From the IMG/VR virus record IMGVR_UViG_2585427793_000003: 10,573 nt of DNA; one strand, given 5' to 3'. The notes beneath the pieces are model-generated. The model was not told the DNA's origin, made no database searches, and saw nothing but the letters and a program-made list of their open reading frames with translations. This DNA comes from a virus. Taxonomy: Duplodnaviria > Heunggongvirae > Uroviricota > Caudoviricetes. Below are positions 4,025-10,573 of this stretch, in pieces. A program made the position numbers and the translations under genes. Every line of letters begins with the position of its first letter. Positions within the stretch are counted from its first letter, which is position 1.

Positions 4025-4044
<20 letters not shown>

Positions 4045-5344
4045 TCTCCCGCATATTGCCAGCATGGCTTTTAATGAGCCGCTGATGCTTGAACCCGCCT
4101 ATGCGCGGGTTTTCTTTTGTGCGCTTGCAGGCCAGCTTGGGATCAGCCGCCTGACGGATGCGGTGTCCGGTGACAGCCTGACTGCCGGAGAGGCACCCGC
4201 GACGCTGGCGTTATCCGTTAATGATGACGGACCACGACAGGCCCGCAGTTATCAGGTCATGAACGGCATCGCCGTGCTGCCGGTTTCCGGCACGCTGGTC
4301 AGCCGGACGCGGGCGCTGCAGCCGTACTCGGGGATGACCGGTTACAACGGCATTATCGCCCGTCTGCAACAGGCTGCCAGCGACCCGATGGTGGACGGCA
4401 TTCTGCTCGATATGGACACGCCAGGCGGAATGGTGGCGGGGGCATTTGACTGCGCTGACATCATCGCCCGTGTGCGTGACATAAAACCGGTATGGGCGCT
4501 GGCCAACGACATGAACTGCAGTGCAGGTCAGCTGCTTGCCAGTGCCGCCTCCCGGCGTCTGGTCACGCAGACCGCCCGGACAGGCTCCATCGGCGTCATG
4601 ATGGCTCACAGTAATTACGGTGCTGCCCTGGAGAAACAGGGTGTGGAAATCACGCTGATTTACAGCGGCAGCCATAAGGTGGATGGCAATCCCTACAGCC
4701 ATCTTCCGGATGACGTCCGGGAGACACTGCAGTCCCGGATGGACGCAACCCGCCAGATGTTTGCGCAGAAGGTGTCGGCATATACCGGCCTGTCTGTGCA
4801 GGCTGTGCTGGATACCGAGGCTGCAGTGTACAGCGGTCAGGAGGCCATTGATGCCGGACTGGCTGATGAACTTGTTAACAGCACCGATGCGATCACCGTC
4901 ATGCGTGATGCACTGGATGCGCGTAAATCCCGTCTCTCAGGAGGGCGAATGACCAAAGAGACTCAATCAACAACTGTTTCAGCCACTGCTTCGCAGGCTG
5001 ACGTTACTGACGTGGTGCCAGCGACGGAGGGCGAAAACGCCAGCGCGGCGCAGCCGGACGTGAACGCGCAGATCACCGCAGCGGTTGCGGCAGAAAACAG
5101 CCGCATTATGGGGATCCTCAACTGTGAGGAGGCTCACGGACGCGAAGAACAGGCGCGTGTTCTGGCAGAAACCCCCGGTATGACCGTGGAAACGGCCCGC
5201 CGCATTCTGGCTGCAGCACCACAGAGTGCACAGGCGCGCAGTGACACTGCGCTGGATCGTCTGATGCAGGGGGCACCGGCACCGCTGGCTGCAGGTAACC
5301 TGGCATCTGATGCCGATAAAGAATTACTGAACACACCAGTGTAA
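4025..5344 (+). CDS. C: Head maturation protease gpC (S49/ClpP-like serine peptidase family)
   Basis: GTG start at 4025 preceded by a GGAGG-type Shine-Dalgarno at about 4011-4015, giving 439 aa as in lambda gpC (N-terminus MTAELRNLPHIASMAFNEPLMLEPAYARVFF). The track's ATG at 3890 is an upstream extension into B in another frame. Overlaps B by 20 nt. Confidence 0.85.
4739..5344 (+). CDS. nu3: Scaffolding protein Nu3, translated from an in-frame internal start within C
   Basis: In-frame ATG at 4739 corresponds to the lambda nu3 start (lambda 5132 minus the 393 offset). The Ala/Gln-rich C-terminal region suits a scaffold. The nested-gene call rests on lambda knowledge; no strong SD is visible. 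Confidence 0.6.
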   Translation: MDATRQMFAQKVSAYTGLSVQAVLDTEAAVYSGQEAIDAGLADELVNSTDAITVMRDALDARKSRLSGGRMTKETQSTTVSATASQADVTDVVPATEGENASAAQPDVNAQITAAVAAENSRIMGILNCEEAHGREEQARVLAETPGMTVETARRILAAAPQSAQARSDTALDRLMQGAPAPLAAGNLASDADKELLNTPV

Positions 5345-5353
5345 GAGGCAGTT

Positions 5354-5686
5354 ATGGCGACAAAAGAAGAGTTTAACCATTACCAGCCGCTGGGTAACAG
5401 TGATCCGGCTCATACCGCAACCGCGCCCGGCGGGTTGAGTGCGAAAGCGCCTGCAATGACCCCGCTGATGCTGGACACCTCCACCCGTAAGCTGGTTGCG
5501 TGGGATGGCACCACCGACGGTGCAGCCGTTGGCATTCTGGCAGTTGCTGCTGACCAGACCAGCACCACACTGACGTTCTACAAGTCCGGCTCGTTCCGTT
5601 ATGAGGATGTGCTCTGGCCGGAGGCTGCCAGCGACGAGACTAAAAAACGGACCGCGTTTGCCGGAACGGCAATCAGCATCGTTTAA
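5354..5686 (+). CDS. D: Head decoration protein gpD
   Basis: 110-aa ORF, same length and largely identical to lambda gpD (...[33 protein letters not shown]...). AAGAGG SD at about 5344-5349. N-terminal residues differ from lambda. Confidence 0.93.
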
Positions 5687-5703
5687 TCTTCCCCTTCATC
5701 AAC

Positions 5704-5728
5704 AAAGGCCGCCTGTGCGGCTTTTTTT
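5704..5728 (+). terminator. Intrinsic-terminator-like hairpin in the D-E intergenic region
   Basis: AAAGGCCGC (5704-5712), loop CTGT, GCGGC (5717-5721), then a run of 7 T (5722-5728). GC-rich stem plus U-tract, 14 nt upstream of the E start codon. Confidence 0.5.
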
Positions 5729-5741
5729 ATGGAAATAATTT

Positions 5742-6767
5742 ATGTCTGTATATACAACTGCAGAATTACTGGCATCGACCCAGCATCACTTTAAGTTCGA
5801 TCCGCTGTTTCTGCGCCTCTTTTTCCGTGAGAGCTATCCCTTCACCACGGAGAAAGTCTATCTCTCACAAATTCCTGGACTGGTAAACATGGCGCTGTAC
5901 GTTTCGCCAATTGTTTCCGGTGAGGTTATCCGTTCCCGTGGCGGCTCCACCTCTGAATTTACGCCGGGTTATGTCAAACCCAAGCATGAGGTGAATCCGC
6001 AGATGACCCTGCGTCGTCTGCCGGATGAAGATCCGCAGAATCTGGCGGACCCGGCTTACCGCCGCCGTCGCATCATCCTGCAGAACATGCGTGACGAAGA
6101 GCTGGCCATTGCTCAGGTCGAAGAGATGCAGGCAGTTTCTGCCGTGCTCAAGGGCAAATACACCATGACCGGTGAAGCCTTCGATCCGGTTGAGGTGGAT
6201 ATGGGCCGCAGTGCGGCGAACAACATCACGCAGTCCGGCGGCACGGAGTGGAGCAAGCGTGACAAGTCCACGTATGACCCGACCGACGATATCGAAGCCT
6301 ACGCGCTGAACGCCAGCGGTGTGGTGAATATCATCGTGTTTGATCCGAAAGGCTGGGCGCTGTTCCGTTCCTTCAAGGCCGTCAGGGAGAAGCTGGATAC
6401 CCGTCGCGGCTCTCATTCCGAGCTGGAGACAGCGGTAAAAGACCTGGGCAAAGCGGTGTCTTATAAGGGAATGTATGGCGATACGGCGATCGTCGTGTAT
6501 TCCGGACAGTACGTGGAAAACGACGTCAAAAAGAACTTCCTGCCGGACAACACGATGGTGCTGGGGAACACTCAGGCACGCGGTCTGCGCACCTATGGCT
6601 GCATTCAGGATGCGGACGCACAGCGCGAAGGCATTAACGCCTCTGCCCGTTACCCGAAAAACTGGGTGACCACCGGCGACCCGGCGCGTGAGTTCACCAT
6701 GATTCAGTCAGCACCGCTGATGCTGCTGGCTGACCCTGATGAGTTCGTGTCTGTACAACTGGCGTAA
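5742..6767 (+). CDS. E: Major capsid protein gpE (HK97-fold)
   Basis: 341-aa ORF, same length as lambda gpE with extensive identity (FKFDPLFLRLFFRESYPFTTEKVYLSQIPGLVNMALYVSPIVSGEVIRSRGG...). N-terminal residues differ from lambda. Confidence 0.95.
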   Translation: MSVYTTAELLASTQHHFKFDPLFLRLFFRESYPFTTEKVYLSQIPGLVNMALYVSPIVSGEVIRSRGGSTSEFTPGYVKPKHEVNPQMTLRRLPDEDPQNLADPAYRRRRIILQNMRDEELAIAQVEEMQAVSAVLKGKYTMTGEAFDPVEVDMGRSAANNITQSGGTEWSKRDKSTYDPTDDIEAYALNASGVVNIIVFDPKGWALFRSFKAVREKLDTRRGSHSELETAVKDLGKAVSYKGMYGDTAIVVYSGQYVENDVKKNFLPDNTMVLGNTQARGLRTYGCIQDADAQREGINASARYPKNWVTTGDPAREFTMIQSAPLMLLADPDEFVSVQLA

Positions 6768-6769
6768 TC

Positions 6770-6787
6770 ATGGCCCTTCGGGGCCAT
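6770..6787 (+). promoter_or_regulatory. Perfect 7-bp stem-loop with TTCG tetraloop in the E-FI intergenic region
   Basis: ATGGCCC (6770-6776), TTCG (6777-6780), GGGCCAT (6781-6787), exact inverted repeat. It lies between the E stop (6765-6767) and the FI SD GGAGGAG (6799-6805). Confidence 0.45.
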
Positions 6788-6808
6788 TGTTTCTCTGTGG
6801 AGGAGTCC

Positions 6809-7207
6809 ATGACGAAAGATGAACTGATTGCCCGTCTCCGCTCGCTGGGTGAACAACTGAACCGTGATATCAGCCTGACGGGGACGAAAGAAGAACTGGC
6901 GCTCCGTGTGGCAGAGCTGGAAGAGGAGCTTGATGACACGGATGACGCAGCCGGTCAGGACTCCCCTCTCAGCCGGGAAAATGTGCTGACCGGGCATGAA
7001 AATGAGGCTGTATCAGCGCAGCCGGATACCGTGATTCAGGATACGGCTGAACTGGTCACGGTCGTGGCACTGGTGACGCTGCATACTGATGCACTTCACG
7101 CCACGCGGGATAAACCTGTGGCATTTGTGCTGCCGGGAACGGCGTTTCGTGTCTCTGCCGGTGTGGCAGCCGAAATGACAGAACGTGGCCTGGCCAGAAT
7201 GCAATAA
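6809..7207 (+). CDS. FI: DNA packaging protein gpFI
   Basis: ATG at 6809 preceded by GGAGGAG gives 132 aa as in lambda FI (MTKDELIARLRSLGEQLNRD...). The track's start at 6770 lies inside the upstream hairpin and has no SD. Confidence 0.85.
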   Translation: MTKDELIARLRSLGEQLNRDISLTGTKEELALRVAELEEELDDTDDAAGQDSPLSRENVLTGHENEAVSAQPDTVIQDTAELVTVVALVTLHTDALHATRDKPVAFVLPGTAFRVSAGVAAEMTERGLARMQ

Positions 7208-7218
7208 CGGGAGGCGCT

Positions 7219-7572
7219 GTGGCTGATTTCGATAACCTGTTCGATGCTGCCATTGCCCGCGCTGATGAAACGATACGCGGGTACATGGGAACGTCAGCCA
7301 CCATGACATCCGGTGAGCAGTCCGGTGCTGTGATACGTGGTGTTTTTGATGACCCTGAAAATATCAGCTATGCCGGACAGGGCGTGCGCGTTGAAGGCTC
7401 CAGCCCGTCCCTGTTTGTCCGGACTGATGATGTGCGGCAGCTGCGGCGCGGCGACACGCTGACCATCGGTGAGGAAAACTTCTGGATAGATCGTGTTTCG
7501 CCGGATGATGGCGGAAGCTGTCATCTCTGGCTTGGGCGGGGCGTGCCGCCTGCCGTTAACCGTCGCCGCTGA
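7219..7572 (+). CDS. FII: Head-tail connector protein gpFII
   Basis: 117-aa ORF with GTG start and GGGAGG SD at 7209-7214. Matches lambda FII (MADFDNLFDAAIARADETIRGYMGTSAT...). Confidence 0.9.
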   Translation: MADFDNLFDAAIARADETIRGYMGTSATMTSGEQSGAVIRGVFDDPENISYAGQGVRVEGSSPSLFVRTDDVRQLRRGDTLTIGEENFWIDRVSPDDGGSCHLWLGRGVPPAVNRRR

Positions 7573-7583
7573 AAGGGGGATGT

Positions 7584-8162
7584 ATGGCCATAAAAGGTCT
7601 TGAGCAGGCCGTTGAAAACCTAAGCCGTATCAGCAAAACGGCGGTGCCTGGTGCCGCCGCAATGGCCATTAACCGCGTTGCGTCATCCGCGATATCGCAG
7701 TCTGCGTCACAGGTTGCCCGTGAGACAAAGGTACGCCGGAAACTGGTAAAGGAAAGGGCCAGGCTGAAAAGGGCCACGGTCAAAAATCCGCAGGCCAGAA
7801 TCAGGGTTAACCGGGGGGATTTGCCCGTAATAAAGCTGGGTAACGCGCGGATTGTCCTGTCCCGACGCAGGCGTCGTAAAAAGGGGCAGCGTTCAGCCCT
7901 GAAAGGTGGCGGCAGCGTGCTTGTGGTGGGAAACCGTCGTATTCCCGGCGCGTTTATTCAGCAACTGAAAAATGGCCGCTGGCATGTCATGCAGCGTGTG
8001 GCCGGGAAAAACCGTTACCCCATTGATGTGGTGAAAATCCCGATGGCGGTGCCGCTGACCACGGCGTTTAAACAGAATATTGAACGGATACGGCGTGAAC
8101 GTCTTCCGAAAGAGCTGGGCTATGCGCTGCAGCATCAACTGAGAATGGTAATAAAGCGATGA
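7584..8162 (+). CDS. Z: Tail completion protein gpZ
   Basis: 192-aa ORF, the same length as lambda gpZ at the syntenic position. GGGGGA SD-like purine run at 7575-7580. Confidence 0.9.
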   Translation: MAIKGLEQAVENLSRISKTAVPGAAAMAINRVASSAISQSASQVARETKVRRKLVKERARLKRATVKNPQARIRVNRGDLPVIKLGNARIVLSRRRRRKKGQRSALKGGGSVLVVGNRRIPGAFIQQLKNGRWHVMQRVAGKNRYPIDVVKIPMAVPLTTAFKQNIERIRRERLPKELGYALQHQLRMVIKR

Positions 8163-8561: not shown

Positions 8562-9302
8562 ATGCCTGTACCAAATCCTGTAATGCCGGTGAAAGGGGCC
8601 GGGACCACCCTGTGGGTTTATAAGGGGAGCGGTGACCCTTATGCGAACCCGCTTTCAGACGTTGACTGGTCGCGTCTGGCTAAAGTTAAAGACCTGACGC
8701 CCGGCGAACTGACCGCTGAGTCCTATGACGACAGCTATCTCGATGATGAGGATGCGGACTGGACTGCGACCGGGCAGGGGCAGAAATCTGCCGGAGATAC
8801 CAGCTTCACGCTGGCGTGGATGCCCGGAGAGCAGGGGCAGCAGGCGCTGCTGGCGTGGTTTAATGAAGGTGATACCCGTGCCTATAAAATCCGCTTCCCG
8901 AACGGCACGGTCGATGTGTTCCGTGGCTGGGTCAGCAGTATCGGTAAGGCGGTGACGGCGAAGGAAGTGATCACCCGCACGGTGAAAGTCACCAACGTGG
9001 GACGTCCGTCGATGGCAGAAGATCGCAGCACGGTAACAGCGGCAACCGGTATGACCGTGACGCCTGCCAGCACCTCGGTGGTGAAAGGGCAGAGCACCAC
9101 GCTGACCGTGGCCTTCCAGCCGGAGGGCGCAACCGACAAGAGCTTCCGTGCGGTGTCTGCGGATAAAACAAAAGCCACCGTGTCGGTCAGTGGTATGACC
9201 ATCACTGTGAAAGGCGTCGCTGCAGGCAAGGTCAACATTCCGGTTGTATCCGGTAATGGTGAACTTGCTGCGGTTGCAGAAATTACCGTCACCGCCAGTT
9301 AA
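8562..9302 (+). CDS. V: Major tail tube protein gpV with C-terminal Ig-like (Big_2-type) domain
   Basis: ATG at 8562 with GAGGA SD at 8553-8557 gives 246 aa as in lambda gpV ([35 protein letters not shown]...). The track's start at 8532 overlaps U and lacks an SD. The C-terminal ~85 aa are Thr/Val/Ser-rich beta-type sequence. Confidence 0.92.
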
Positions 9303-9317: not shown

Positions 9318-9741
9318 ATGTTCCTGAAAACCGAATCATTTGAACATAACGGTGTGACCGTCACGCTTTCTGAACTGTCAGCCCTGCAGCGTATTGAGCA
9401 TCTTGCCTGGTTGAAAGAGCAGGAAAAAAAGGCTGAATCCAGACAGCAACCGGAAGTTTACTGTGGAGGATCTTATCAGAGGCGGGGCGTTTCTGGTGGC
9501 GATGTCCCTGTGGCATAACCATCCGCAGAAGACAAAGCTGCCGTCCATGAATGAAGCCATTACGCAGATTGAGCAGGAAGTGCTTACCACCTGGCCCACG
9601 GAGGCAATTGCTCAGGCTGAAAACGTGGTGTTACGTCTGTCCGGAATGTCTGAGTTTGTGGTGAATAATTCCCCTGAACAGGCAGAGGACGCCGGGCCTG
9701 CAGAGCCTGTTTCTGCGGGAAAGTGTTCGACGGTGAGCTGA
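9318..9741 (+). CDS. G: Tail assembly chaperone gpG, reading frame interrupted by an apparent 1-nt insertion near 9441 (possible pseudogene or sequence error)
   Basis: The span is 424 nt, not a multiple of 3. Frame 0 from ATG 9318 reads MFLKTESFEHNGVTVTLSELSALQRIEHLAWLKEQEKKAES, then runs into a stop at 9519-9521. Frame +1 resumes the gpG-like sequence from 9442 (DSNRKFTVEDLIRGGAFLVAMSLWHNHPQK...CSTVS) to the stop at 9739-9741. Frame +1 is closed upstream by TGA at 9412-9414. Confidence 0.7.
9717..9723 (+). other. Programmed -1 ribosomal frameshift slippery heptamer G GGA AAG (G to G-T fusion)
   Basis: GGGAAAG at 9717-9723, with GGA and AAG in the distal G frame 6 codons before the G stop. 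The -1 frame continues open from 9723 to 10157. This matches the known lambda G-T recoding site. Confidence 0.75.
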
Positions 9742-10157
9742 GTTTTGCCCTGAAACTGGCGCGCGAGATGGGGCGACCCGACTGGCGCGCCATGCTTGCC
9801 GGGATGTCATCCACGGAGTATGCCGACTGGCACCGCTTTTACAGTACCCATTATTTTCATGATGTTCTGCTGGATATGCACTTTTCCGGGCTGACGTACA
9901 CCGTGCTCAGCCTGTTTTTCAGCGATCCGGATATGCATCCGCTGGATTTCAGTCTGCTGAACCGGCGCGAGGCTGACGAAGAGCCTGAAGATGATGTGCT
10001 GATGCAGAAAGCGGCAGGGCTTGCCGGAGGCGTTCGTTTTGGCCCGGACGGGAATGAAGTTATCCCCGTTTCCCCGGATGTGGCGGACATGACGGAGGAT
10101 GACGTAATGCTGATGACAGTATCAGAAGGGATCGCAGGAGGAGTCCGGTATGGCTGA
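9723..10157 (+). CDS. T: T segment of the G-T tail assembly chaperone fusion (made by -1 frameshift from G, not independently initiated)
   Basis: Open frame 9723..10157 encoding FDGELSFALKLAREMGRPDWRAMLAGMSSTEYADWHRFYSTHYF..., as lambda gpT. It begins at the slippery site and has no SD of its own. Ends 8 nt into H. Confidence 0.8.
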   Translation: MFDGELSFALKLAREMGRPDWRAMLAGMSSTEYADWHRFYSTHYFHDVLLDMHFSGLTYTVLSLFFSDPDMHPLDFSLLNRREADEEPEDDVLMQKAAGLAGGVRFGPDGNEVIPVSPDVADMTEDDVMLMTVSEGIAGGVRYG

Positions 10158-10573
10158 ACCGGTAGGCGATCTGGTCGTTGATTTAAGTCTGGATGCGGCC
10201 AGATTTGACGAGCAGATGGCCAGAGTCAGGCGTCATTTTTCCGGTACGGAAAGTGATGCGAAAAAAACAGCGGCAGTCGTTGAACAGTCGCTGAGCCGAC
10301 AGGCGCTGGCTGCACAGAAAGCGGGGATTTCCGTCGGGCAGTACAAAGCCGCCATGCGTATGCTGCCTGCGCAGTTCACCGACGTGGCTACGCAGCTTGC
10401 AGGCGGGCAAAGTCCGTGGCTGATCCTGCTGCAACAGGGGGGGCAGGTGAAGGACTCCTTCGGCGGGATGATCCCCATGTTCAGGGGGCTTGCCGGTGCG
10501 ATCACCCTGCCGATGGTGGGGGCCACCTCGCTGGCGGTGGCGACCGGTGCGCTGGCGTATGCCTGGTATCAGG
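10150..10573 (+). CDS. H: Tail tape measure protein gpH, N-terminal part (3' end lies beyond the window)
   Basis: ATG at 10150 with AGGAGGA SD at 10133-10139. Frame is open to the window end and encodes MAEPVGDLVVDLSLDAARFDEQMARVRRHFSGTESDAKK..., matching the lambda gpH N-terminus. Absent from the ORF track because there is no stop within the window. Confidence 0.9.
   Translation, partial: MAEPVGDLVVDLSLDAARFDEQMARVRRHFSGTESDAKKTAAVVEQSLSRQALAAQKAGISVGQYKAAMRMLPAQFTDVATQLAGGQSPWLILLQQGGQVKDSFGGMIPMFRGLAGAITLPMVGATSLAVATGALAYAWYQ

Follow-up and report, generated by a model that had tools for sequence, protein, structure and literature searches.

Tail assembly in phage lambda requires both gpG and gpGT, made in a ratio of about 30:1, with gpGT arising from a programmed -1 G-T frameshift at a slippery heptamer (PMC5009743). 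The G gene described here lies in a lambda-like block of head and tail genes (nu1' to H') of E. coli 3-373-03_S4_C3. The window that was analysed, 10,573 bp in length, is the entire contig JOQL01000062.1 of the draft assembly GCA_000714065.1 (2014). Its first base falls within nu1 (lambda 394) and its last within H (lambda 10965), and its identity is 97.2% with lambda J02459 394-10965 and 98.5% with a prophage of E. coli 10035776-3. The GenBank entry MW057783.1, 'Campylobacter phage CJLB-4' (48,361 bp, host C. jejuni), scored as high against the window as lambda did over all 10.5 kb; it uses lambda gene names and has the appearance of lambda DNA deposited under a different name.

The tail chaperone genes of the window are arranged as in lambda. 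The gene order is V-G-T-H (V 8562-9302, G from 9318, T up to 10157, H from 10150), which places the chaperone pair between V and H. Its members belong to PF06894 (Phage_TAC_2) and PF06223 (Phage_tail_T), and the slippery heptamer is identical to that of lambda and leads into an open T frame, all of which are attributes of a lambda-type G/G-T pair. The T frame matches lambda at 144 of 145 positions, and the G protein, when repaired, is 87% identical to lambda gpG. Unlike lambda G, however, the G gene of the deposited window loses its reading frame after codon 41 through a net gain of one base. The allele also differs from the lambda class, since it belongs to the 'WLKEQEKKAES...LIRGG' class and carries an 8-codon patch of lambda type.

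The frameshift in gene G

As seen from the sequence and the list of ORFs, G starts with the ATG at 9318 and is read normally through ...KKAES (TCC at 9438-9440). Beyond 9440 reading is out of frame and runs into a TAA stop, which results in a product of 66 aa (Table 1). The rest of the gene, beginning with DSNRKFTVED, is found in frame +1, where it starts at 9442 and reaches the regular G stop at 9739-9741. A first-pass annotation, made from the sequence alone, had proposed precisely such a split of G, and hence of G-T, with frame +1 closed upstream by a TGA; the sequence bears out both statements, while the frame-0 stop, which had been placed at 9519-9521, is located at 9516-9518.

The +1 frameshift is present in the deposited sequence, as a global alignment of the window with lambda J02459 394-10965 confirmed. 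Across the 10,573 bases, a single additional base in G was the sole indel, and the coordinate offset to lambda changed from -393 upstream of this base to -392 downstream of it, in agreement with the gene spacing that the first-pass annotation had used in its argument. The two G fragments adjoin at position 42 of the PF06894 profile, which means that nothing has been lost but the frame; in bits, the repaired G scored 183 and the two fragments 62.6 and 108.6. In the deposited sequence, G cannot be read through from its start codon to the slippery site, since frame 0 is stopped before that site; if the joint is an artefact, the frame is uninterrupted. The interruption was also correctly distinguished from the programmed -1 site, where the GGGAAAG heptamer is intact.

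Table 1. Positions of features around the interrupted G gene, in window coordinates.
Feature	Position	Strand	Description	Basis
Left exact segment	9287-9442	+	156 nt; non-lambda ('WLKEQEKKAES-SGNLQVSVEDLIRGG') G allele of the E. coli 10035776-3 prophage	exact match, alignment
TGA	9412-9414	+	closes frame +1 upstream of the shift	sequence
Truncated G ORF	9318-9518	+	66 codons: 41 authentic gpG residues, then 25 out-of-frame residues; TAA at 9516-9518	PF06894 profile positions 1-42
A7 run	9424-9430	+	not the indel site	same in intact alleles
CAG	9440-9442	+	common to left segment and patch; net +1 base arises at this joint	alleles align TCCAG-TGGC / TC-AGACAGC
Lambda patch	9440-9467	+	28 nt, CAGACAGCAACCGGAAGTTTACTGTGGA, equal to phage lambda; in register with right flank, one base off with left flank	exact match, alignment
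G remainder	9442-9741	+	frame +1, DSNRKFTVED...CSTVS, then stop	PF06894 profile positions 42-125
Right exact segment	9466-9931	+	466 nt; non-lambda allele again; sibling contig (L010) identical	exact match
Slippery heptamer	9717-9723	+	G GGA AAG, programmed -1 G-T frameshift, intact	sequence, alignment; role from PMC5009743
T reading frame	9723-10157	+	open in -1 frame	PF06223, 54.1 bits
5' part of H (tape measure)	10150-10573	+	open, 141/141 identical to lambda; contig ends here, ~140 nt before the H allele-divergence zone

The first-pass annotation had considered a decaying prophage, and had proposed that the neighbouring phage genes be checked for inactivating mutations. None was found in the window. 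The 12 complete genes A, W, B, C, nu3, D, E, FI, FII, Z, U and V contain no internal stops and no indels relative to lambda. The T frame and the N-terminal part of H are likewise open, and the slippery heptamer is preserved. G is thus the sole broken gene, and its neighbours lend no support to the idea of decay.

Several other properties of the contig were recorded. The window versions of gpA, gpC, gpD, gpE and gpFI (318-2243, 4025-5344, 5354-5686, 5742-6767 and 6809-7207) occurred on no other contig among ~15 billion proteins, as was also the case for the gpC of the sibling contig described below, while gpB, gpV, gpFII, gpZ and gpU of the window are common. These singletons are in line with chimerism, but would also fit a rare phage lineage. 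At 5334, near the 3' end of C/nu3, the window is, like lambda, without a 12-nt insertion (ACCTGAAGCTTT) that is present in the otherwise closest prophage, that of E. coli 10035776-3 (C of 443 aa). Three substitutions within 85 nt (490, 521 and 573, from the end of nu1 to the start of A) occur in no reference that covers the stretch, and directly follow a short lambda-type patch (425-440).

A joint between two G alleles

Exact-match tiling resolved the site into three segments that overlap by 3 nt and 2 nt, such that a short patch of phage lambda is flanked on both sides by one and the same non-lambda allele, which is a common one (Table 1). The closest G allele, that of E. coli 10035776-3 (WP_001400123.1), is identical to the window over both flanking segments; the 8 substitutions and the indel that separate the two all lie inside 9443-9465, and the rest of G is identical. 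Where the G genes of E. coli 10035776-3 and phage IdasGreatGrand read AGT GGC AAC CTG CAG GTG TCT GTA, in frame and for a total of 140 aa, the interrupted G of the window has the lambda-type patch and one additional base.

The gain of this base can be understood from the alignment of the two allele types. Their CAG triplets are positioned one base apart (TCC AGT GGC versus TCA GAC AGC), and the best alignment needs two compensating one-base gaps; a switch of alleles between these two gap columns therefore results in the gain of one base. In the window the joint reads GAATCCAGACAGCAACC. An example of a 31-mer across 9440-9442 is AAGGCTGAATCCAGACAGCAACCGGAAGTTT, for which the intact-allele counterpart is AAGGCTGAATCCAGTGGCAACCTGCAGGTG and the lambda-type counterpart CAGGCGGAGTCAGACAGCAACCGGAAGTTT. 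The first-pass annotation had placed one extra base around 9439-9442. This location holds, as the shift arises in the CAG at 9440-9442, but no single base can be named as the extra one because this CAG is common to two exact-match segments.

The A7 homopolymer just upstream had been put forward as the context of the indel. However, the intact alleles of E. coli 10035776-3 and phage IdasGreatGrand match the window up to ...GAATCCAG, through 9442, and carry the identical A7. The run was therefore rejected as the indel site, and its slippage as the cause, the shift being located at the left edge of the 28-nt patch. The same region contains A AAA AAG (window 9425-9436), a dnaX-type -1 slippery heptamer in the zero frame of G that is also found in the intact 'EQEKKAES' alleles; a -1 slip at this heptamer would lead to the reading of GGC and then TGA (9434-9436), and to a product of ~39 aa.

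Next to its structure, the joint is characterized by its uniqueness. In 20 aligned gpG alleles, WLKEQEKKAES was always combined with SGNLQVSVE(D/E)LIRGG, and DSNRKFTVED always with LMK...QAES...(A/V)IRTG; the two halves were never joined as they are in the window. Natural hybrids inside this codon stretch do exist among these alleles, for example DSNRQVTVED, DSNRQFTVED and SLNRQVSVED. Scans for junction patterns, including in-frame hybrid variants with 0-2 bases at the joint, returned no match in genome, viral or metagenome contigs. Among 5,426 complete E. coli genomes with ~6,700 G copies, none covered at least 80% of 9400-9490, and none matched 9439-9530 above 91.2% over the full length. An exact look-up of the repaired 140-aa G protein found no copy among ~15 billion proteins, the 66-aa product (KEL20525.1) is a singleton present on one contig only, and the 120 listed homologue cluster representatives are all single ORFs of ~133-150 aa. 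Homologues with this exact sequence in an intact single ORF, which the first-pass annotation had named as evidence that would speak against its claim, did not turn up; the outcome was the opposite, since no other sequence shares it. Nor did the lesion recur in related isolates or other sequences, the sibling S4_C2 being in frame with a different hybrid.

Source assembly and sibling colonies

The isolate stems from the study of Richter et al. 2018, in which 100-bp HiSeq 2000 reads were assembled with MaSuRCA 2.3.2 (PMC6222053); its reads (3_373_03_S4_C3) are listed in Table S1 of that study as SRSS568359. Three colonies from one stool sample, S4_C1, S4_C2 and S4_C3, are all ST10, phylogroup A and O16:H48, with genomes of ~5.3 Mb. 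Look-ups of gpC and gpW, aimed at sibling assemblies with the same prophage, revealed no identical copy and led only to a locus of S4_C2 (L010, on the 265-kb contig JNMS01000004.1) that was reached via a rare gpW allele. This locus is 98.1% identical to the window, and 99.7% over 9466-10573.

At the site of the lesion, the G gene of S4_C2 is a different hybrid, which is lambda-type on the left and in frame. Its markers at 9454, 9457, 9459, 9460, 9465 and 9468 are lambda, lambda, other, lambda, other and other, respectively, and after marker 9468 it is identical to the window through 9931. This hybrid was not present in complete E. coli genomes either, where the best match was 93.8%. Accordingly, two colonies that look clonal, S4_C2 and S4_C3, display two different unique hybrids at one site in G. 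The lambda-type 5' half of G was seen only on the contig of S4_C2.

The H gene of the S4_C2 locus (L010:9700-10300) contains five private 1-nt deletions as well as private substitutions within ~500 nt, beside switches between lambda-type and L009-type sequence, and was called as three ORFs of 229, 124 and 516+ aa. It looks like a blended consensus. As these indels occur at allele switches, the same pipeline makes junction-associated indels in this prophage.

Origin of the extra base

We consider it probable that the G frameshift arose when two co-resident prophage alleles were merged into a chimera during consensus building or assembly, and that it is most likely not biological. In this scenario the genome would hold two lambda-like prophages, unlike each other in the 5' half of G but near-identical from 9466 onward, and the lambda-type allele would be present in isolate S4_C3 itself. 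The super-read/Celera consensus of MaSuRCA would have mixed both alleles, with ~25 consensus columns at the border of the shared segment coming from the lambda-type copy; one base would then be gained if the first gap column followed allele 1 and the second followed allele 2. The real prophage would possess an intact G and G-T. An assembly error had been named as an alternative by the first-pass annotation, and it became the best-supported reading through the tiling, the uniqueness of the junction and the origin in a short-read draft, to which the like errors in the sibling assembly are added. The lesion coincides with the switch between two allele types at the joint 9440-9442, and there is no other lesion in the 10.5 kb.

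The case resembles collapsed-repeat-boundary errors in short-read drafts: the window is a short orphan contig that breaks off within phage genes, its lesion sits at an allele switch beside a region shared with another copy, and the sibling assembly has clustered 1-nt indels at other switches. Both contig ends fit breaks at the edges of sequence that is shared with, or diverges from, another prophage in the genome, and an end just short of the H divergence zone is as expected of a contig bounded by a repeat edge. Unlike in those errors, the putative chimera in the window was deduced from the assembled sequence and not at the level of reads. Contig-wide counts of allele flips between reference pairs were 65-81 for the window and 84-110 for lambda and mEp332 in the same test. 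The window thus flips no more than bona fide phages do, which means that its fine mosaic is normal and provides no evidence of chimerism. Likewise, a composite haplotype re-phased from the window and the sibling (4400-7800) had a best database identity of 97.6%, which is no improvement on the 97.9% and 97.1% of the originals. That the window and the sibling show 'complementary' states when compared with a third sequence was dropped as an argument, because such a pattern is trivial at biallelic sites.

There are arguments against the chimera. Illumina consensus is normally accurate, the second, lambda-type allele was seen only in the assembly of the sibling, and the patch of the window is lambda-type at 9459 and 9465 while the sibling contig has the other state at both, so that the donor was not exactly the deposited sequence of the sibling. 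Moreover, a real recombination event would leave an identical footprint. Such an event, the main rival explanation, would be the transfer of a short gene-conversion tract from one co-resident lambda-like prophage to another. The tract would have its anchor in the identical sequence on the right (from 9466) and would end 25-28 nt into the divergent island at the out-of-register CAG microhomology, either through homology-facilitated illegitimate joining or because two 1-nt loops in heteroduplex DNA were repaired in opposite directions. This explanation accounts for the tiling and the microhomology at the joint no less well than an artefact does, the genome of the sibling contains a lambda-type donor allele, and natural hybrids occur within this codon stretch; the need for gpG and gpGT at a set ratio in tail assembly (PMC5009743) is also counted on its side. 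We nevertheless regard a real mutation by recombination as unlikely, since the junction is a singleton in every collection searched, the different hybrid of the sibling at the same spot would need a second independent event, and the sibling H gene shows that the pipeline itself creates such indels. Compared with consensus errors at the repeat edges of draft assemblies, recombination events of this kind are much less frequent. It is very improbable that the +1 joint is real in the more specific sense that one-sided, homology-anchored illegitimate recombination or patchy heteroduplex repair inactivated the tail chaperone, with this copy surviving on gpG/gpGT supplied in trans by the second prophage or on rare A7 slippage.

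A simple one-base insertion, as envisaged by the first-pass annotation, by replication slippage or as a sequencing indel, for instance near A7, would presuppose an in-frame hybrid ...KKAES-DSNRKFTVED-LIRGG... that reads GCTGAATC(A/C)GACAGCAACCGGAAGTTTACTGTGGAGGATCTT. An A7 run located 10 nt upstream and the fact that repair of one base yields a full-length PF06894 protein would suit this idea. Nonetheless, it has very little chance of being correct: the A7 is the one found in intact alleles, an in-frame hybrid was absent from the complete E. coli genomes, the 0-2-base pattern scans and the protein collection, and under slippage the position of the extra base exactly at the allele switch is an unexplained coincidence. 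Least probable is a real indel rescued by recoding, in which low-level transcriptional or +1 ribosomal slippage on the A7 would produce a 'compensated indel', a concept that has been described previously (PMC5009743). What favours it is arithmetic only: dropping one A between the TGA at 9412-9414 and the stop at 9516-9518 gives ...EQEK RLNP DSNRKF..., a 140-aa gpG in which the sole change is KAES to RLNP. The sequence is, however, a singleton and hence without conservation, there is no evident stimulatory element, seven A residues are few for efficient slippage, and with gpG needed in ~30-fold excess over gpGT (PMC5009743) a few percent of product would probably not suffice. Programmed recoding was rejected because the shifted arrangement is not conserved in homologues.

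If the frameshift were real, both gpG and gpGT would be lost from this prophage copy, as the first-pass annotation had correctly stated, and no tails would be made unless another prophage complemented the defect. It would then be a single private allele with loss of function, in a gene that is well understood, and would show a neat footprint of recombination but no new biology. The preferred reading, an assembly chimera, matters mainly as a warning: in short-read drafts, a frameshift in a structural gene of a prophage can be a chimera of co-resident alleles rather than a sign of prophage decay, and scoring such frameshifts as pseudogenes would inflate estimates of cryptic prophages.
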